From NCBI GenBank assembly GCA_963663165.1, contig OY760175.1, positions 2,016,001 to 2,080,000 on the forward strand: DNA of 64,000 nucleotides, in the 5' to 3' direction. Positions within the stretch are counted from its first letter, which is position 1. Each line of letters starts with the position of its first letter. The DNA is from an uncultured Desulfospira sp. (lineage in GTDB: Bacteria > Desulfobacterota > Desulfobacteria > Desulfobacterales > Desulfobacteraceae). A program made the translations under genes and the position numbers. Positions 4,889 through 14,156 of the stretch are shown here, piece by piece. Below the pieces are notes generated by a model, which worked only from the letters and a program-made list of their open reading frames with translations, did not search any database and was not told where the DNA came from.

Positions 4889-4945
4889 TATCACTAAGAA
4901 TTTGCCATGGGCAAGGTGTCAGGACAATCGCATGTAAAACATATG

Positions 4946-5032
4946 GAGACCGGAAACCGGAAAAAGGGGGACCGGAATGCGCCCCCCTAAGGATGCGTGA
5001 TCCGGTCTCCCGTCTCCCTTCCTCCGGTCTCC
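4946..5032. repeat. Inverted heptamer-type repeat cluster (GGAGACC/GGAAACC ... GGTCTCC)
   Basis: ggagaccggaaaccgg...ccggtctcccgtctccc...ccggtctcc; similar units near 2745-2770, 11815-11840 and 23848-23914. Confidence 0.65.
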
Positions 5033-5170
5033 TTCTTTACATACTCACATATAAGACAGTCGGCAGATTACATGAGATTACCCTGGGCAAAGTGTTCATA
5101 AATCTTGTCTTTTCCGGCTCCCTTATGATAGTATTTTTATCTTTATGACAGCGCAAAGGAGATTGAATGC

Positions 5171-7048
5171 ATGGGGCATTTACAGGAATTTGAACTGGCA
5201 CTGCATCAGATCAGTGAGTTCCCTTTAACATACGAAACCATTATCCCGGAAGAATGCCACCTGTTTCAGGATGTCCGGCGGTACCAGACCCGGACCGCCC
5301 GGCTGAACGTCCAGATGATCAATATCGACGGCCGGATCACCCTGGATTCTGAAATGATCCACGTGCCCATGGCCAAGCTGACATCAGCGGAAAAAAAAGA
5401 CTTTACCGAATACCTTAAATTAAGAATCACCAGGGGCGACAATATCGGCTCCACATGGGCCTTTTTCAGGCCGGCCGGCAAACAGAGTTCCCAAAAAGCC
5501 CTGACCGCCTTCGGGGCCAATATTGTCCACAGGGATGCGGCCCAGGGGCAGGACCGGGCCAGGCAGTTGCTATCAGCCCTTCAGAAAAGCACCACCATGG
5601 CCTTGCTCACAAAACAGTACCTGAAAGTCTTGCTTTTTGCCGCATTGATCGCAGCCCTTTTGTTTGGGGGATTCAAGTATGGGTACCTGGCCAAAAGGCT
5701 GCCCTTTTCCAATTTCTCTTCCAATACCCACCCCAGGGAAATGGCATTTTACCAACACCTGTTTCCCCATGTGTATGACTGGCGCAATGGCGATGACCCG
5801 GCCTTGAAAAAAATTGCCAAAGATCTGCTCAAACCCGAGTTTATTACCGATCTGTTATCCTCCATGGACCAAAGCTTTCATTATTCCATCCATACCGAAG
5901 ACCGGAACCCGGGAGACCGGCTGGTCATGTTTATTTATTTTAATTACAACCATGAGGTAAAAAAGGCCCTTGATAAATACTCGGAAAGCCTGGAAGGCAC
6001 CGAGTTAATGCGGCTTGCCCGGATCTATTCCTGCCGGCTGTCCGGCTATTTGAGCAATATTTTTTATTTCAAGGTCGGGGACCTGGACATCCAGAATGCG
6101 GAAATCAGTAATTTTTTGAAAAAAAATAAAATCTCATACCGGGACTATGAAAAACTCAGGGATACGGATTCCTTTTCCGATCTTCTGGAAAAGGACAACA
6201 TCAGTTTTAAGATGAAAAATTTTCTTGAGGATGTGTATACCTTTACCCCGTTGCGGATTAAGGCCCCGGTTGAGGGATTTGAGTGGTATCTGCTGACCCA
6301 GGCCGACCCCGGCGGCAACTTGGATTTTGCGGCATTTTTCCAAAACGACCGGGCCACCCTGGTGCCCAGAAGAATAGGAGATGCACTGCTCAACGGCTCA
6401 GCGGAAAATGATACTTTCTGGTATGCCGTATCAGATGCCCAGGCCCGGGAGTTAAACCTGGCCGAAAACAGCCTGATCTATTTTAGCAAAACAGCGGGAC
6501 AGGCCCTGAAGCTGGACCTGATCCAGGATAAAATTGCCGCCATGAATTTAAATGTCCTTCCCGCCCCTTTGCAGGTAACGGTCCACCGGGAACTTCTCAT
6601 GGAGGACAGCAAAGGCAAATACGGGATCCAGTGTTATGACCCGGTAACCAGCCTGGTCCTGTCCAACCTGATCACCAAATCCTCTTTTGAATATGACAAT
6701 ATCTCCTTAAAACGGGACCCCATCCAGGTGAACACCACCCTGGTTCAGCTGTCCAAGGATGACGGATTTTCCACCCAGTCCGTTACCATTACCCCTGGCA
6801 AAACCGGTATTATCAACCTGTTCAGGGACCGGGACAACTTTGAAGCCCGGTTTCCGGACGGGTCCACGGTGCTGTTTGAACGGGCCGATGTCAACCTGTT
6901 TAACCCGTTTTCATTTATCGTGCGCAACGACAGCATTACCTTTAGTTTTAAACGGGATATCACCGATATAAAGATCACCTTAAGAGATGCGCACCTTAAG
7001 GTCGTCACTGCCAGTGACGGAAACCTTCAGATCCTTCGAACCAATTAA
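5171..7048 (+). CDS. Hypothetical single-pass membrane protein (SrfA-like architecture, inferred)
   Basis: 625-aa ORF with RBS aaggag; one hydrophobic helix (LKVLLFAALIAALLFGGF) near aa 150-168; long beta-rich C-terminal part. Confidence 0.8.
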   Translation: MGHLQEFELALHQISEFPLTYETIIPEECHLFQDVRRYQTRTARLNVQMINIDGRITLDSEMIHVPMAKLTSAEKKDFTEYLKLRITRGDNIGSTWAFFRPAGKQSSQKALTAFGANIVHRDAAQGQDRARQLLSALQKSTTMALLTKQYLKVLLFAALIAALLFGGFKYGYLAKRLPFSNFSSNTHPREMAFYQHLFPHVYDWRNGDDPALKKIAKDLLKPEFITDLLSSMDQSFHYSIHTEDRNPGDRLVMFIYFNYNHEVKKALDKYSESLEGTELMRLARIYSCRLSGYLSNIFYFKVGDLDIQNAEISNFLKKNKISYRDYEKLRDTDSFSDLLEKDNISFKMKNFLEDVYTFTPLRIKAPVEGFEWYLLTQADPGGNLDFAAFFQNDRATLVPRRIGDALLNGSAENDTFWYAVSDAQARELNLAENSLIYFSKTAGQALKLDLIQDKIAAMNLNVLPAPLQVTVHRELLMEDSKGKYGIQCYDPVTSLVLSNLITKSSFEYDNISLKRDPIQVNTTLVQLSKDDGFSTQSVTITPGKTGIINLFRDRDNFEARFPDGSTVLFERADVNLFNPFSFIVRNDSITFSFKRDITDIKITLRDAHLKVVTASDGNLQILRTN

Positions 7049-7085
7049 AAGGAAGGGCCGCCAAAGGCCGAAAGTTTGACCCCAT

Positions 7086-8567
7086 ATGAATATCAGTCCA
7101 GAACGCATCACTGCCTTAACCCAGGAAGTAGAGTCCATTATTCGGCAGATCAACCTTTTGCCGGCGGCAAGCACCAAGATCACCGGGCAGATCCTTGACC
7201 GGTGCCGGGACTGCCTTGAACAGGCACCGGCCACCGATACCCCGGTCTATATCCATATCACCGGCACGGATAAATCCTTTAAAACCAGTTACCTGCTGGA
7301 CCTGTTTGACCATGAGGTGTTACGGGGCCTGTTTTCGGTTAAAGTGAGGACCACATCGGAAAACACGGCGGTTCCCTGCATGATCAAACCGGTTGACGGG
7401 ATCAGCAGCGTAATGGTCAGCCAGGTGTCCATCAGCACGGGCCGGACCATAAGGAACAACCTGACCCAGGAGCAGTTCAACCGACTTTATGACCTGGCGT
7501 CAGGGGCCCAGCCCGACGATTATCTCATTGTCATTGAGGTGCCGGCCCATGAGACGCCCATGGAACTTGCCGCCATTGAATACCCGGGAATCAAACAGGG
7601 CGCCGATTCCATGGAAGCCCAGAAACTGCTTCATAAAAAATTTGAAGAAAACATGATGACCTGCCTGGTCAAGTACCCGGGGATCCTGGTGGCCTGTTTC
7701 CAGCATAAGGTGGCCATTCCCAAGGGCCACCCCATGGACGCCATCCTTAAAAAATACGGACAGACTTTGAAAACCTCGGCCTCCCACCACAAGCTGCCCC
7801 TGGTCCTGTCCCTCCAGGGGGAAACCGCCGTGGCCAGCTATTGCGGGAATACCAACGTGGTAAAGGACATTCAGAGCGATTTTAAAAGCTTTACCGACTT
7901 TGATTCCATGATCCAGCTGATCAACCCCTGCCACCAGGAATACCCGGCCAGCTTTATCCCGCCCGGCCCCCATGTGGATGAATGGATTGAATCCCTGTCC
8001 CGGTACAAAACCTTAAATGAAATCAAAGAACAGATCCGGTTAGACGGCGGTATTGCCTGGTCCAGGCAGCTGCTCAAGGAGCTTTGCACCACCTCCTATA
8101 TCAAGGAAGCCTTGAACAACATCTTTTTCAAACCCTGGATTATAGAAACTCAAAATCTGGTGGAAGAAGCTGCCAATTGCCTTCACGAAGCCACCAACTA
8201 TGATGAATCCGCCGAAATCAAAGAACGGATGAGACAGGTGATTCTCGATGACGAGTATTTAACGTTGCGCCGGATCTTTGACGAGGAACTAAGCTATACC
8301 CATGAGAACACCATAGACGACCATCAAGGGTTCTGGACAGGGGTTTTTTCAAACTATCTGGACCAGTTTTTCCGGGATACCGACCGGAGCAAAGCCATTG
8401 CCGGCATCATGTGGGACAATATCTTAAAACGGATTGACCCGGAGCAAAAAGGGTTTTTCGGAGCCCGGGAAAAGGATTTGCCCTATATCATTATGAACAT
8501 GGCCGAATTCTATGTTCCCAACGCCCTGATGAGGGGAGACTATCTTCTCATGGAAAAAGATCTTTAA
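7086..8567 (+). CDS. Hypothetical protein with degenerate dynamin-like GTPase motifs (SrfC-like, inferred)
   Basis: HITGTDKSFKTSYLL (G1-like), ENTAVP (G2-like), AIEYPG (G3-like DxPG); helical C-terminal region. Confidence 0.65.
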   Translation: MNISPERITALTQEVESIIRQINLLPAASTKITGQILDRCRDCLEQAPATDTPVYIHITGTDKSFKTSYLLDLFDHEVLRGLFSVKVRTTSENTAVPCMIKPVDGISSVMVSQVSISTGRTIRNNLTQEQFNRLYDLASGAQPDDYLIVIEVPAHETPMELAAIEYPGIKQGADSMEAQKLLHKKFEENMMTCLVKYPGILVACFQHKVAIPKGHPMDAILKKYGQTLKTSASHHKLPLVLSLQGETAVASYCGNTNVVKDIQSDFKSFTDFDSMIQLINPCHQEYPASFIPPGPHVDEWIESLSRYKTLNEIKEQIRLDGGIAWSRQLLKELCTTSYIKEALNNIFFKPWIIETQNLVEEAANCLHEATNYDESAEIKERMRQVILDDEYLTLRRIFDEELSYTHENTIDDHQGFWTGVFSNYLDQFFRDTDRSKAIAGIMWDNILKRIDPEQKGFFGAREKDLPYIIMNMAEFYVPNALMRGDYLLMEKDL

Positions 8568-8578
8568 GGAGAAAGACC

Positions 8579-10330
8579 ATGCTGTTTGATTTTTTCAAAC
8601 GGAAAAAAACACCGGTGGATGAATTCCAGCTTGCCCTGGAAGATGATGATAAACTTTACTATGAAACCATTGCCGGAAGAACCCCGAGAGACCCCAATAA
8701 CAAAGAAGAGTATATCCTTTTTATCGATTTTGGTTCCTATAGAACGTCGGTCCTGTGCTGGCCGTGCAGTTTCGGCCGGGATAAAATCACCGATTCCTGG
8801 AAGTACGTGGTCCACTTTGACGGTGATGACCAGGGGGGATTCCCTTCCGCCTTTATCAACCCCCCGTCAGGGGACGAACGGGACTTTGCCTTTGTCTCCA
8901 GTGTGGAAGAGGCCAACATCAGCCCAAGCCAGGTGGTTAGAAGCGCCAAATACGCCTTTGCCAGTAAATTTGCCGCATACAAAGGGGACGTCCCCCAGTT
9001 CAAGCTGTACATTAAAAAAATTCTGGAACACAGTTTCAAATATGTGACAGAGCCTAAAGAAGACCGGCCCTGGAACGGCCCCGCCATCCCCATTATCACC
9101 GAAGTCAGGGTAACGGTGCCGGACCTTTTTATTGAAAACCTGCGGGCCGGGTACCGGGAAAATATCTTTGGCGTCTGCATGGAACTGGCCGGCCACGCCA
9201 AGTGGAAAAACATTTTTCCGTCCAACCTCCGGCATCTGAGAAAAACCTTTGTCAATATCTCCTCGGATGAAAGCGGGGCCTGCGAACTTTACTTTTTAAA
9301 CCTGATCAAACTCATGCCCTTCTGGGAGCTGTCCAGCTACAAGGACCGGCTGCCCGGTATTGACGAGGTTCACTTTTTGTTTTCCCAGGACCGCCACCGG
9401 AATCCGGATAAGGACCACTTGAATTTTGTGGTCTGCCACCTGGATATCGGGGGGCTGACCACAGATGTGAGCATGCTGCTGATTAAAAGCGTCTATGACC
9501 CGGTTCTGGGCATTACCACCACTTTGAAACGCAAAGAGTCCTTTTCCGAAAAAAAGGCCGGCGAGTATTTTGCTGAAAGCTTTGCCGCCGACAGGACCGC
9601 TGACAGCCCGGCCCACTGGTGGGATTCTCAGGACTTCATTGACACGGAATTTGCCAAATTCTTGGGCATGCTCACCGGCAAACAGGCCGTGCTGCTCAAA
9701 GAGTGGCACCGGGAAAGAAAGCTTAACGGCATTTACTTTCTGATCTCCGGCCGGCCCACCAAGGCCCCCCTGGTCCAGAAAGCCATCCGCCGGCATATCT
9801 TAAGGGAATTTAACCGGGAAGAATTGCTGTTACTGCCCGAGCACTGCCTGTTCATGGCCGACTACTATCATGTGGGCAAAAACGAAGAAGGGGAGCGGTA
9901 CGCCAAGAAGATAGAACATTTTGAAAAGCTGATCACCTTGCTGGGCAATGTCTACACCCTGTATGACGGGTATGACATTGACTTTGAAAACCACAAGTAT
10001 TTCATCTCCCTGGATGTGGATGCACGGACCAGCAACCAGATGGAGGTTTCTCCAGGCAAGATATACAACATGGAGACCTTTGAGACCTACAAAAAGGCGG
10101 CCCTTAAAAACAACGTCAATCACCTGGCCTTTACCCGGATCCTTGGCGGGGAACATACCACCCGGTTTTTGACGGTCAAGACCATTGCCCGGCAGACGGC
10201 GTTTCCGGCCATTAAAGTGGCCACGGCGGCGGACTATGATGACCAGGCATGGATTACGCCGTCTTTGATTATTACCAACCTGGATCAGAATGAGCAGGCA
10301 TTTGACCTGGCATGGGCCACCCTAACCTAG
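8579..10330 (+). CDS. Hsp70/actin-fold (ASKHA) protein, remote SrfB-like
   Basis: FIDFGSYRTSV (phosphate 1), VTVP, SDESGA, HLDIGGLTTDV (phosphate 2), ISGRPTKAP (adenosine motif); RBS aaggag. Confidence 0.75.
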   Translation: MLFDFFKRKKTPVDEFQLALEDDDKLYYETIAGRTPRDPNNKEEYILFIDFGSYRTSVLCWPCSFGRDKITDSWKYVVHFDGDDQGGFPSAFINPPSGDERDFAFVSSVEEANISPSQVVRSAKYAFASKFAAYKGDVPQFKLYIKKILEHSFKYVTEPKEDRPWNGPAIPIITEVRVTVPDLFIENLRAGYRENIFGVCMELAGHAKWKNIFPSNLRHLRKTFVNISSDESGACELYFLNLIKLMPFWELSSYKDRLPGIDEVHFLFSQDRHRNPDKDHLNFVVCHLDIGGLTTDVSMLLIKSVYDPVLGITTTLKRKESFSEKKAGEYFAESFAADRTADSPAHWWDSQDFIDTEFAKFLGMLTGKQAVLLKEWHRERKLNGIYFLISGRPTKAPLVQKAIRRHILREFNREELLLLPEHCLFMADYYHVGKNEEGERYAKKIEHFEKLITLLGNVYTLYDGYDIDFENHKYFISLDVDARTSNQMEVSPGKIYNMETFETYKKAALKNNVNHLAFTRILGGEHTTRFLTVKTIARQTAFPAIKVATAADYDDQAWITPSLIITNLDQNEQAFDLAWATLT

Positions 10331-10336
10331 TTTGAG

Positions 10337-10556
10337 CGAAACTTCACCCATCTGCGGCGTTGCTTCAAAAATCTGCAATCCTCACAACCAAAAGGTTGCT
10401 CCGGTTGCAGATTTTCTTGCGCCTTGCATATGGGCAAACTTTCACTCAAACACGAACCAGACGAAACTTCACCCATCTGCGGCGTTGCTGCAGGATTTTA
10501 AGATCTTAACGTATGACAAATACGCTCCGGTCTCAAAATCCTCCGGGTGCAAGCCC
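10337..10556. repeat. Two tandem copies of a structured ~110-125-bp intergenic element
   Basis: 28-bp identity cgaaacttcacccatctgcggcgttgct at 10337 and 10462; each copy folds into a nested hairpin. Confidence 0.8.
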
Positions 10557-10627
10557 CTGTCGGTTCAATTCCAACCTTCGGCACCACGAATATCAAGGCT
10601 TTCAGCGTTTCAGCGGGAAGCCTTTTT

Positions 10628-10720
10628 TATATGAAAGTCTCACTAACATCTTGAGAAAACTTTCATTATTCGTTGTGGGCGGTTCTTGGTTGGATAACCA
10701 AGGCGGCCCGTGGCCGTTAT
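10628..10720 (-). repeat. Modular two-hairpin dispersed repeat (second copy at 53571-53708)
   Basis: Reverse complement is near-identical to the modules at 53571-53708. Confidence 0.9.
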
Positions 10721-11060
10721 TTGAAATTTTGAGGGCTAACAAAAAGGTTGTGCCCCGGTAATTTCCAAAATCATCCTTTTCCTTTTATGGGTTTGGTGCC
10801 CCATAACTATTAATAACAGTCCGGGCTTTGAATCCATCATTGGAGGGATTCCGTTTTTGACATTGTCTGCGGTGTGCCCCCTCCACAATGCTTCTGTTAT
10901 TGGACTCTGTTTTGAAATAGGCCGGGGCGGGCTTAAATAGACAGGTTGTAGGGTTTCCAATTCCTCAAAAGTTCAGGAAATTAACGTGAAAATCTGCGGT
11001 ATATCCGTCAGCATTTTTTTGTTTTGGCTATTTATACTTTTTGTTCTCTGATATTTTAAT

Positions 11061-11098
11061 TTGACGCGCATCCTAAAAAGCATTATAAATAGTACTAT
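11061..11098 (+). promoter_or_regulatory. Sigma-70 promoter and operator palindrome of the first TA operon
   Basis: TTGACG-N17-TATAAA followed by palindrome atagtactat. Confidence 0.6.
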
Positions 11099-11133
11099 AA
11101 AAAGTTTTTGCAAAATGAAAATAGGAGGTTTTC

Positions 11134-11385
11134 ATGAATACTATAACGGCAAACCAACTAAAAACAAAGGGAGTCTCTGTAATTCAAAACAATCTCTTGC
11201 AGAATCAGGAATTGGTAATCACAGTTCGTGGTAAAGAAAAATTTGTTGTAATGAATATGGAACATTATAATTATCTACGAGAATGTGAATTAGATGCTGC
11301 TCTTCACCAGGCAAAATCTGATTATGAATCTGGAAGCTATATAACCGAAGATGTAGAAGCCCATATCAAAAGAATTACACAGTGA
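11134..11385 (+). CDS. Phd/YefM family antitoxin
   Basis: MNTITANQLK...LVITVRGKEKFVVM; RBS ggagg; overlaps the toxin start. Confidence 0.85.
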   Translation: MNTITANQLKTKGVSVIQNNLLQNQELVITVRGKEKFVVMNMEHYNYLRECELDAALHQAKSDYESGSYITEDVEAHIKRITQ

Positions 11386-11657
11386 CTTATACCCTCATCT
11401 ATACAAATAGTTATATTAAAAGGGCTTCTAAATTTGTCAAAAAGCACCCTGATTTAGTGTCTCAATATGAAAAAACACTGAAACTGCTGGAAATTGATCC
11501 AACTCATCCTTCATTAAGACTCCATCCATTGAAAGGGAAATTGAAAGAATTGCATTCCGTATCCATTAATATTTCTTATAGAATTACCCTTGAATTTATT
11601 CTTGTTAACAAAGAAATCATCCTGGTGAATGTTGGGCATCATGATGAAGTGTACTAA
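11382..11657 (+). CDS. RelE/YafQ-superfamily toxin
   Basis: PSLRLHPLKGKL...SINISYRI...VGHHDEVY; coupled to the antitoxin (GTGA overlap). Confidence 0.85.
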   Translation: MTYTLIYTNSYIKRASKFVKKHPDLVSQYEKTLKLLEIDPTHPSLRLHPLKGKLKELHSVSINISYRITLEFILVNKEIILVNVGHHDEVY

Positions 11658-11917
11658 AGTCAATTGTCACTTTCCAATTTTTGGCAAATGCTTCCTATAA
11701 GCCCTATTTCTGGGTCAACATGGGACCGCTAAGAGCTGATTTTAAGGATTTTTTGGGAATTTTATCATTTAAAAACAAAAGGTTGTAAGTTTTTGCTTGG
11801 TCTGACCCCTTTTTCCGGTCTCCTTTTCTCCGGTTTCCGTTTTTTACATTCACAAACAATATCCAAATATCATACCGGATTATGATGTGGTTACCCTACC
11901 CCGGAAATCAAAATGTG

Positions 11918-11946
11918 TTGACAAATGATACACATAGCCATATACT
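11918..11946 (+). promoter_or_regulatory. Sigma-70 promoter of the second TA operon
   Basis: TTGACA-N17-TATACT. Confidence 0.7.
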
Positions 11947-11987
11947 TTTTTCCATCATTTTTATGACCTTTCAGGGGAGTTGATTAT

Positions 11988-12278
11988 ATGGAAAATGCTC
12001 ACCAAACAACGGCCCGCCGGACATCCGCCATTCATATTCGGGCGTTTCCTGCCCAGAGGGAACTAATAAAGCAGGCCTGTGGCGAACTTAACAAAAAAAT
12101 GACTGATTTCATCCTTGAGGCTGCCTGCCGTGAAGCGGAATCTGTCCTGTGTGACCGCCGATATTTCTCATTGAGCCCTGAAAGCTTTGACGCATTCGAG
12201 AATGCGTTAAATACCCCCTTAAGTGAAAACCAGACGGTAAAGCATCTCCTGGCCACCCCCTCTCCATGGGAAAAATAA
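11988..12278 (+). CDS. DUF1778 RHH antitoxin (TacA/AtaR type)
   Basis: IHIRA...LIKQA...TDFILEAACREAE...SFDAFENAL...LLATPSPWE. Confidence 0.9.
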   Translation: MENAHQTTARRTSAIHIRAFPAQRELIKQACGELNKKMTDFILEAACREAESVLCDRRYFSLSPESFDAFENALNTPLSENQTVKHLLATPSPWEK

Positions 12279-12739
12279 CGCCACCGGCCCCCATCAAAAA
12301 AGAGCATCAAACCCAGGGGTTTGACTGCGCCATTATTTCACTCAATGAATGGCTGGTCCGGCGGGCAATGAAGAACGAATATTCAGGGGCTTCCCGGACA
12401 TATGTTGTTTGCAATGAACGCCGGGTGGTGGGATATTATGCCCTGGCGGCCGGCAGCGTTACCAGAGCTGATGTTCCTGGAAAAATAAAAAGGAATATGC
12501 CCGAGCCGATTCCGGTACTGGTTCTTGGCCGTTTGGCTGTGGATTACCGGTATCATGGGAAAGGCATCGGACAGGGGCTGCTCAAAGATGCCGTTGCAAG
12601 GGCTATTAATGTTTCACTGCAAATTGGCACCAAAGCATTTCTGGTACATGCATTGAACACGAATGCCGAACTTTTTTATTTAAAACATGGCTTCATAAAG
12701 GGGCCGGTGTTGAATACCTTGTTTTTACCCCTCGGATAA
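12266..12739 (+). CDS. GNAT acetyltransferase toxin (TacT/AtaT type)
   Basis: GFDC...VVGYYALAAGS...PIPVLVLGRLAVD...GKGIG...FYLKHGF. Confidence 0.9.
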   Translation: MGKITPPAPIKKEHQTQGFDCAIISLNEWLVRRAMKNEYSGASRTYVVCNERRVVGYYALAAGSVTRADVPGKIKRNMPEPIPVLVLGRLAVDYRYHGKGIGQGLLKDAVARAINVSLQIGTKAFLVHALNTNAELFYLKHGFIKGPVLNTLFLPLG

Positions 12740-12773
12740 AAGTAGAATAAATAGGTCCGGCGTCCCCGGCGTA

Positions 12774-12837
12774 AATTCCGTAATTCCGTAATTCCGGGGA
12801 CACCTTACTTAATTATTTGGAATTAAGTAAGGTGTCC
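12774..12837. repeat. Perfect 17-bp inverted repeat preceded by aattccgN x3 (REP-like)
   Basis: ggacaccttacttaatt (12798-12814) / aattaagtaaggtgtcc (12821-12837). Confidence 0.85.
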
Positions 12838-13391
12838 GTAAGCCGTAACGACTGTGGTTCTATCAGGTTTAAGTCCGGCAGGAGGAATTGTCCGTACGCC
12901 TTCTTAGCCCTTTTTACCCCCAAAAACATATAATTAAGACCCAATATGCTTATAATTTTCATGGTTTTTGCCTGTTTTCCGATGGGGTGACTTGTCCCGA
13001 CCCCAACACAAAAACAACACAAAAAATTGGAAACCCGGGGGAAACCCAAAAAACAATTCGAAATAATATAACCTTGCTGCTTCAAGGGACGGCAAAAGGC
13101 CCGCCGCCCCCGAGCAGCCCGTGAAAATAATAAAAAATCAAAATTTTTGAGGAATAGCATAGCGACAGACTATTTATGAACTCCCAGGTTTTTTTTGAGG
13201 GGGTGTTGACTTCTTTGGGTTTTGATTGATGATCTGAATATAAGATGTGCATAGATCAGGAAGTTTGCCCTTTCTATTCCTCCACATTTTTCAGCTTTCC
13301 CCAGATGCTTTTTTAGTTGTGGCTACCTTTCCAAATAATATTTAATGTTGTATAGTTATTTTGATTATTTCATTTAAAGGGAATTTAAAGC

Positions 13392-13652
13392 ATGACTGAA
13401 ATAAAAAAAAATGTCAGTTTTTCATTGGGTGCGCGAGACCGTGCCTTTATTGAAAGCCAGGTGGAACATGGTCGTTTTGGTAATAGAACAGAAGTCGTAC
13501 GGGCAGGGTTGCGTCTTTTGGAAGACTATGAGTATAGACAAAGGTTACAGCGTTTACGGGCTGAAATTGCAACAGGCGATGCAGACATAAAAGCCGGGCG
13601 GGTAACTGAATATGACAGCGCAACATCTCTATTCAATGACATCATGGCTTAA
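13392..13652 (+). CDS. ParD family (RHH) antitoxin
   Basis: SFSLG...FIESQVEHGRFGNRTEVVRAGLRLLE. Confidence 0.88.
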   Translation: MTEIKKNVSFSLGARDRAFIESQVEHGRFGNRTEVVRAGLRLLEDYEYRQRLQRLRAEIATGDADIKAGRVTEYDSATSLFNDIMA

Positions 13653-13664
13653 AATAAGGCAGGT

Positions 13665-13969
13665 ATGACATCAAATCCTTTAGTTTAATCCTGACTGATC
13701 AGGCGGTAGCAGATTTTAAGGATATTCGAGACTTTATTGCTCGGGAAAATCCAAGCGCAGCAGCATCATTTATTAAGGATCTTACGGATAAGTTAAAAGA
13801 CCTTTCAGATAAGGGGGCTACCGGCTCACCAAGGGACTGGGTAAGCACAGGATTAAGGGGATTTCCTTACAACGGGCATTGTTTTTATTTCCGAATTATC
13901 AAAGGCAAAATGATTGTGGTCCGGATACTTCATGGGAAACAGGATGTCACGACACAATCCTTCTTCTAA
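13665..13969 (+). pseudogene. RelE/ParE family toxin, frameshifted immediately after the start (or sequencing indel)
   Basis: Frame from 13673 reads KSFSLILTDQAVADFKDIRDFIARENPSAAA...VVRILHGKQD; ATG at 13665 is out of frame and stops after 7 codons. Confidence 0.8.
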
Positions 13970-14156
13970 ACTGGAAATCCGTAAAGGTCATAAGAGCCCG
14001 GGCGAATATTAAATAAATGCAAAATTTTTGCCTGATGTTTCCAAGGTTTTCTTGGGGTAAGTCAACAATCCTATCAATAAAATGAGAAATTCAGGCCTTT
14101 TTTGCGGATTTTGCCTGTCATTAAAATATATTAAGGATGCCCAAAGCCTGCTCTTT

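Follow-up and report, generated by a model that had tools for sequence, protein, structure and literature searches.

Within a 64,000-nucleotide stretch of DNA from an uncultured Desulfospira sp. (assembly GCA_963663165.1, contig OY760175.1, positions 2,016,001-2,080,000 of the forward strand; hereafter the window), three open reading frames (ORFs) at 5171..10330 encode a membrane-anchored protein (ORF1), a dynamin-like protein (ORF2) and a protein of the Hsp70/actin superfamily, ASKHA (ORF3). Profile comparisons and predicted structures indicate that this operon is a real, divergent and re-ordered (A-C-B) SrfABC-like system. The preferred reading, at a probability of roughly 55%, is that it is a streamlined A-C-B relative of SrfABC which is inherited vertically in one Desulfobacteraceae clade and acts on the cell's own inner membrane. 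SrfABC-type ancestry for the whole trio is highly probable; given that ancestry, a role in remodelling the cell's own membrane is likely.

SrfABC is widespread and is labelled a virulence factor or toxin (PMC3608642; 10.64898/2026.09.18.752743). In environmental sulfate reducers, a much smaller version that purifying selection strongly preserves would reveal the core parts and argues for a cell-intrinsic role. Cultured, non-pathogenic species of Desulfobacter, Desulfocicer and Desulfamplus offer a small system for asking if a bacterial dynamin can be driven by an Hsp70-like ATPase.

Relationship of the three proteins to SrfABC

All three genes lie on the + strand, with intergenic gaps of 37 bp (ORF1-ORF2) and 11 bp (ORF2-ORF3). 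An earlier note on this DNA had described an unannotated operon of three co-directional frames with these gaps. The coordinates bear out this layout, and the operon is invisible to every family model: none of the three proteins matches a family in Pfam, NCBIfam, PADLOC-DB 2.0 or PHROGs. The curated SrfABC models PF07520, PF10139 and NF040486 also give no match at E <=1, while canonical controls score E 1e-98 or better. A search of the open-access literature found no paper on this operon and none pairing SrfC with dynamin. The operon is best seen as a version of something already known, though poorly understood, and not as an entirely new system.

The A-C-B likeness to SrfABC proposed in the earlier note is well supported for ORF3 and moderately for ORF2; in ORF1 it is limited to architecture. 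ORF3 (8579..10330, +) is a 583-residue ASKHA ATPase whose place in the SrfB lineage is well supported by profile comparison. It is without the ~250-residue N-terminal part of SrfB; the phosphate-1 motif is at residue 50 in ORF3 and at residue 259 in SrfB. The ASKHA motifs that had been listed (DFGSYRT, VTVP, SDE, DIGGLTTD and SGRPTKAP) are all found, in that order, and D50, K124, E231, D289 and T294 are invariant in 17/17 aligned homologues at identities as low as 31%. Six motif blocks are common to ORF3 and SrfB in the same order: DxGxxRT (including its Arg), TVP, DE, DIGGxTTD, E-[GS]-F..AG[DE] after phosphate-2, and GRP[ST].

Alignments were built from same-phylum genomes and plasmids for SrfA (18 rows; 7 non-SrfA proteins left out), SrfB (21) and SrfC (16); control alignments comprise DnaK (28 rows) and other dynamin-like proteins (24 rows). 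ORF3 142-322 matches the SrfB profile with an hhalign probability of 61% (E 8e-5, 168 columns), and a second region, 386-526, matches at E 1.3e-4. Over block-shuffled nulls (16 each), ORF3 scores z 7.1 with SrfB and z 3.8 with DnaK. When a hidden Markov model (HMM) of ORF3 138-325 is run against 7919 sequences, which take in every long frame of ORF3's own genome, ORF3 itself is at rank 1, 11 SrfB sequences fill ranks 2-12 and the best DnaK is at rank 51. ESM Atlas returns an SrfB cluster at 0.92 and Hsp70 clusters among 30 matches; ahead of these is a top set of 22 matches without a Pfam family, whose three displayed clusters are 748-871 aa long.

As in the nucleotide-binding domain of DnaK/Hsp70, the phosphate-1, connect-1 Glu, phosphate-2 and adenosine motifs of ORF3 are invariant, as is K124, which aligns with K70 of DnaK (the lysine of IKR). 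Since these catalytic-type residues are invariant, ORF3 is likely to be an active ATPase, if it follows Hsp70 chemistry. ORF3 is nearer to SrfB than to DnaK; unlike DnaK, it has no detectable substrate-binding domain (ORF3 440-583 against DnaK 355-520, profile E 0.22), and neither DnaJ nor GrpE is found among 66 annotated neighbours of the operon. PDB sequence searches with ORF3, as a single sequence or a profile, give no match. The ORF3 alignment, used as a profile against 1.84 billion representatives, recovers 13 matches; the ORF3 family is therefore small and isolated. Two distant homologues (P0035 and P0037) carry an additional N-terminal segment of ~90 aa.

ORF2 (7086..8567, +) encodes a soluble, SrfC-like protein of 493 residues with a helical neck, a G domain at ~50-340 and a short trunk. 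Its predicted structure (pLDDT 86, pTM 0.71) has a dynamin fold. The structural comparison for which the earlier note had called returns Fzo1 at Z 17.8 (root-mean-square deviation 7.2, 299 aligned) and MFN2 at Z 16.5, followed by SynDLP, OPA1, EHD4, Campylobacter DLP1 and IniA at Z 13-14; Foldseek agrees (MFN2, E 6e-9). A PDB sequence search with ORF2 gives one row, which is put down to chance.

The model has the dynamin-type architecture of mitofusin/Fzo1 and of bacterial dynamin-like proteins (BDLP, Campylobacter DLP1/2, IniA, SynDLP, EHD; Z 12-18), in which neck helices flank the G domain and a helical trunk follows. In contrast to these proteins, with which it has ~10% identity, ORF2 has no membrane helix or evident paddle; no segment is hydrophobic enough in 12 homologue rows. 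It also differs from bacterial dynamin-like proteins in having an Hsp70-like ATPase partner and no second dynamin-like gene. A supposed ORF2 paralogue in the same genome was rejected because its frame is repetitive and lies as a shadow opposite a real gene.

The G1/G2/G3-like motifs reported for ORF2 are present: G60, K66, T67, T94, E165, P167 and G168 are invariant in 41/41 homologues. They are also altered, and ORF2 fails the canonical patterns for G1 (GxxxxGK[ST]), G3 (DxxG) and G4 ([NT]KxD). In the P-loop, GTDKSFKT, the second Gly of G1 is replaced by Phe or Tyr and Lys-Thr is kept; G3 is EYPG, with Glu for Asp, and the G4 position is SLQG, with no TKxD. Each of these variants is conserved. 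The P-loop Lys-Thr, the switch-I Thr and the switch-II Gly are nevertheless invariant in all 41 homologues. This fits either a G site that is retained but prefers a different base or a pseudo-enzyme that still binds nucleotide, and does not fit decay; the motifs, proposed earlier to be degenerate, are better described as altered yet conserved throughout.

The dynamin-like N-terminus attributed to SrfC is confirmed; SrfC matches the dynamin-like set at a probability of 86% and carries canonical G1-G4. ORF2 resembles SrfC in two late blocks, 272-281 and 320-334 (F-x-x-x-x-x-L-x-N-P and D-G-G-[IV]). Its z score is 3.5 with SrfC and 1.8 and 2.2 with two other dynamin-like sets, and an ORF2 HMM places SrfC at ranks 8, 13, 46 and 48. 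The dynamin fold of ORF2 is shown by its model; the signal specific to the SrfC lineage is weak.

ORF1 (5171..7048, +), in the SrfA position, encodes a single-pass membrane protein of 625 residues with a cytoplasmic head, one helix and ~450 residues of probably periplasmic domains. The single transmembrane helix described earlier (residues ~150-168; 5618..5674, +; Kyte-Doolittle 2.16) is present in 55/56 homologues and a second helix in none; a weak positive-inside bias favours N-in topology. The predicted structure has pLDDT 75 and pTM 0.45. Its head (residues 1-141; 5171..5593, +) is probably a minimal non-catalytic kinase-like fold, as weak structural matches suggest. In a wide search whose top Z, 5.0, is noted by the tool itself as lying in the noise, every row that aligns more than 110 residues (15 of the 50 listed, with 113-129 residues at Z 3.8-5.0) falls on residues ~10-150; at least 12 of these 15 weak matches have kinase or pseudokinase titles or are well known as such, and two others are presumed kinase folds. 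Foldseek gives no match for the ORF1 model at E <=0.001 in the PDB or a viral library, a search in which the outer domains are barely tested.

SrfA is reported to consist of a kinase-like head that is non-catalytic, followed by a membrane helix and, in the periplasm, a lipocalin-like domain, with SrfB modelled as docking onto it (10.64898/2026.09.18.752743). ORF1 has a similar head-helix-periplasmic layout, and its likeness to SrfA is one of architecture only (the helix and the weakly matching kinase-like head), with no sequence signal; its outer part gives a profile E of 0.46 against the lipocalin-like C-terminal part of SrfA. Conservation in ORF1 peaks at 276-300 and 476-550, which largely coincide with the lowest model confidence, as would be expected if folding needs an oligomer or a partner. 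No internal duplication was found in ORF1. A relationship to the membrane-protein gene that follows srfC was rejected, as the helix alone matched. At plasmid srf loci (L107-L115), seven genes lie upstream of srfA, those with an annotation being vWA, protease, tellurite-resistance-domain or hypothetical, and each gives a partial-length match to the SrfA profile; this suggests that SrfA domains are shuffled modules.

As in SrfABC, three parts are encoded together: an ASKHA ATPase, a dynamin-like protein and a protein that crosses the membrane once and has its head in the cytoplasm. In contrast to SrfABC, the order is A-C-B rather than A-B-C. ORF3 and ORF2 are shorter than the canonical proteins, as the earlier note stated: 583 aa against ~1000-1040 aa for SrfB, and 493 aa with altered G motifs against ~880 aa with canonical motifs for SrfC. 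ORF1 has 625 aa against ~410-510 aa for SrfA, and its outer part is unrelated. The trio shares the build of SrfABC, and ORF3 at least is of SrfABC descent; formally, however, the trio falls outside the group because of the lack of a model match, the gene order and the missing domains.

Distribution, inheritance and selection

Homologue searches recover 97 ORF1, 70 ORF2 and 37 ORF3 proteins, all unnamed or "hypothetical"; named sources are Desulfobacter, Desulfobacula, Desulfamplus, Desulfocicer and kin. Among 161 Desulfobacteraceae genomes, ORF1 is found in 56, ORF2 in 57 and ORF3 in 57; any of the genes is present in 58 and the complete trio in 55. The three genomes with a partial trio are 52-85% complete. 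In well-assembled genomes of the family, each gene is present in 35/91. A 78-residue match to the ORF2 profile in genome G171 is excluded from the counts, and candidate P0214 was rejected as a repeat-rich match.

Presence follows genus: 13/14, 20/25, 6/6, 6/8 and 5/5 genomes in some genera, against 3/51 (genus g11), 0/22 and 0/9 in others. In a 401-genome sample of the phylum, ORF3 is matched only in the sample's two Desulfobacteraceae members and in none outside the family; distant ORF3 homologues with 31-56% identity are found in metagenomes. Canonical SrfB is present in 11/301 phylum genomes and 1/161 family genomes, none of which has the operon. In a 2013 comparison, srfB and srfC turned up in host-associated Deltaproteobacteria and, apart from these, only in a single strain of Desulfovibrio desulfuricans (PMC3608642).

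The co-occurrence of the three genes as an operon, which the earlier note had proposed to check, is borne out by the 55 complete trios and by the order 1-2-3 (A-C-B), which is kept on the same strand in 32/45 genome loci. Seven loci are cut by contig ends; 6/45 have another gene ahead of ORF2, with ORF1 on another contig in 5 of these 6 genomes. ORF2 and ORF3 often overlap. Two loci, L029 (8021-9948) and L036, have two genes between ORF2 and ORF3, one of which encodes an N6/N4 DNA methylase (PF01555); this is probably a restriction-modification pair.

Protein trees of ORF1, ORF2 and ORF3 are congruent in supported groups and follow genus labels; they exclude L043, metagenome loci and incomplete loci, and those of ORF2 and ORF3 are quick trees. 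The closest locus is L051, labelled uncultured Desulfospira, with 95-99% identity. L043, labelled Cohaesibacter, has the operon and shares its neighbours with L041 and L042, two Desulfocicer-like loci; the likely reason is a wrong label or carry-over in binning.

The ratio of nonsynonymous to synonymous substitution rates (dN/dS) over 10 genome pairs is 0.09-0.20 for ORF1 (median 0.11), 0.07-0.16 for ORF2 (median 0.10) and 0.01-0.07 for ORF3 (median 0.03). Such values mark the three frames as real genes. The operon has a GC content of 50.5% (genome 50.0%). Its genes are single-copy, and searches of plasmids, phages and viral contigs give no match to them. Plasmids, too, carry canonical srf loci (144 records), whereas this operon is vertical within one family. 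Its pattern is that of an operon which is ancestral and constrained though dispensable, and not that of a defence island.

Proposed mechanism and alternative roles

Computation establishes the fold or lineage of ORF2 and of ORF3, the one membrane helix in ORF1, and the strict inheritance of the three genes together; every interaction in the following scheme is inferred. ORF1 would span the inner membrane with a large part outside the cytoplasm, perhaps sensing there, and its kinase-like head may provide a non-catalytic dock for ORF3. Bound at this head, ORF3 would spend ATP on loading, activating or releasing ORF2. Having itself no membrane helix, ORF2 would thereby be placed on the inner membrane, where it may tether, bend or stabilise the bilayer in envelope upkeep or stress. 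Complex prediction for ORF1 1-142 with ORF3 20-583 gave 0.35, 0.00 and 0.00 in three runs. A more specific proposal is tentative: a minimal machine for membrane remodelling, built around a mitofusin-like protein whose nucleotide pocket is rewired and which is controlled by a transmembrane receptor with a pseudokinase head and by an Hsp70-like ATPase dedicated to it. If this is true, the core job of the SrfABC superfamily would be envelope remodelling, and the labels "toxin" and "virulence factor" would be secondary.

Several results weigh against a streamlined SrfABC relative acting on its own membrane. In the reverse test, an SrfB HMM gives DnaK and ORF3 equal scores of 17.1 bits each; the ORF3 test regions were picked after the alignment had been inspected, and the Atlas SrfB row has 165/256 features in common with ORF3, where 170 is typical of the same family. 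The profile probability of ORF2 with SrfC is 5%, at the z of 3.5 given above, and HMMs of the entire ORF2 G domain fail to rank SrfC. For ORF1, the head scores 18.9 with the SrfA head, a value beaten by 2/71 control comparisons; the HMM rank test against SrfA is blank, Atlas scores for the head are <0.8, and the C-terminal FLxGxW (FLNGxW) motif, found in 14/18 SrfA, is in 0/56 ORF1. The operon was not found in 5/25 genomes of genus g3, one of them single-contig and 97% complete, and is thus dispensable.

An unlikely alternative is that the SrfABC-type trio is a transmembrane signalling or assembly switch, for example in surface motility, in which the periplasmic part senses and the NTPases switch with no membrane reshaping. 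The short ORF2 trunk, the absence of a membrane helix and the non-canonical G1, G3 and G4 would suit such a switch. Salmonella srf mutants are reported to swarm poorly, with the operon under FlhDC (PMC4219756). Canonical srf loci of Deltaproteobacteria are reported to accompany tagQRST and ppkA signalling genes (PMC3608642), and a TagQ-like match was obtained here as well. However, unlike at canonical srf loci, tag, ppkA, vWA and protease genes are all absent among the 66 annotated neighbours, and flagellar co-occurrence fails to explain the distribution; flagellin is found in 114/161 family genomes, far beyond the operon's reach, while 7/55 operon-bearing drafts have no flagellin match.

Rather less probable is an anti-phage or stress-defence module that limits lysis by membrane stabilisation or works by abortive infection. 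The model for stabilisation is Bacillus DynA, which is reported to confer phage resistance at the population level (PMC8844932). The operon is patchy in the family, most clearly in genus g11; toxin-antitoxin (TA) loci adjoin it in the window, and the methylase-containing pair interrupts it at two loci. Against defence stand the single copy, the congruent vertical trees, dN/dS values down to 0.01 and the negative searches of PADLOC, plasmids, phages and viral contigs. Co-location with defence islands, another check that had been proposed, is not seen: neighbours vary by genus and, in the 66 of 100 listed that were scanned, are chiefly metabolic, transport or regulatory. The TA cluster itself is missing at the sister locus L051.

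About equally improbable is SrfB descent for ORF3 alone, with ORF1 and ORF2 recruited independently to give a convergent parts list. The lack of an ORF1-SrfA sequence signal, the unrelated C-terminal part of ORF1, the different gene order and the weak ORF2-SrfC signal would all be expected from independent recruitment. It would require three coincidences, however, because an SrfB-lineage ATPase, a dynamin-like protein with two SrfC-like blocks and a single-pass protein with a head matching kinase folds occur together.

An exported three-part toxin against eukaryotes or competitors, as in Xenorhabdus, where SrfA, SrfB and SrfC are reported to form one cytotoxic complex (PMC6950479), is very improbable: one subunit is membrane-anchored, no exporter or immunity-like gene accompanies the operon, evolution is housekeeping-like and the carriers are environmental sulfate reducers. 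The earlier suggestion of a toxin or anti-phage module is disfavoured because the operon is single-copy, vertical, under strong purifying selection and without mobile or viral matches, and because the TA cluster is strain-specific. An envelope machine is more likely than a toxin or a defence island.

Putative promoter and neighbouring genes

A sigma-70-type promoter ahead of ORF1 is probable. The putative site at 5105..5134 (+), recognised by reading the sequence, has a weak -35-like hexamer, an 18-bp spacer and an extended -10; it is not picked up by a consensus scan. The pattern TGnTAnnnT occurs upstream of ORF1 in 18/29 loci (shuffled mean 6.5, maximum 15), among which related loci are not independent. 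Among sequencing runs, no RNA run is listed as holding the operon.

The operon had been placed between an RNB gene and a TA cluster. The RNB gene (PF00773, E 9e-75) is indeed the upstream neighbour of ORF1 and TA loci lie downstream of ORF3, but the TA cluster is not conserved context. It comprises three TA-type loci (one Phd/RelE-like pair, one TacA/GNAT pair and a ParD antitoxin on its own) at ~10450-14150, with a GC content of 41%, and is missing at the same-genus locus L051, where ORF3 runs nearly directly into the conserved gene ahead of purH. The cluster was thus inserted in a strain-specific manner. After ParD, the listed frames of >=40 aa include no ParE.

Repeats are found on both sides of the operon. 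An intergenic repeat at 4945-5042, between RNB and ORF1, gives ~78 blastn rows across the genome; at the matching position, L051 carries additional genes amounting to ~4.5 kb. Downstream, the stretch 10326-11130 gives 355 blastn rows in the genome, and 10624-10726 is a dispersed repeat of ~100 bp with hundreds of genomic copies at 93-98% identity, resembling a miniature inverted-repeat transposable element or a repetitive extragenic palindrome. Straight after the ORF3 stop, a 28-bp sequence occurs twice, ~126 bp apart (10337-10490); L051 apparently carries a further copy of it at the insertion junction.

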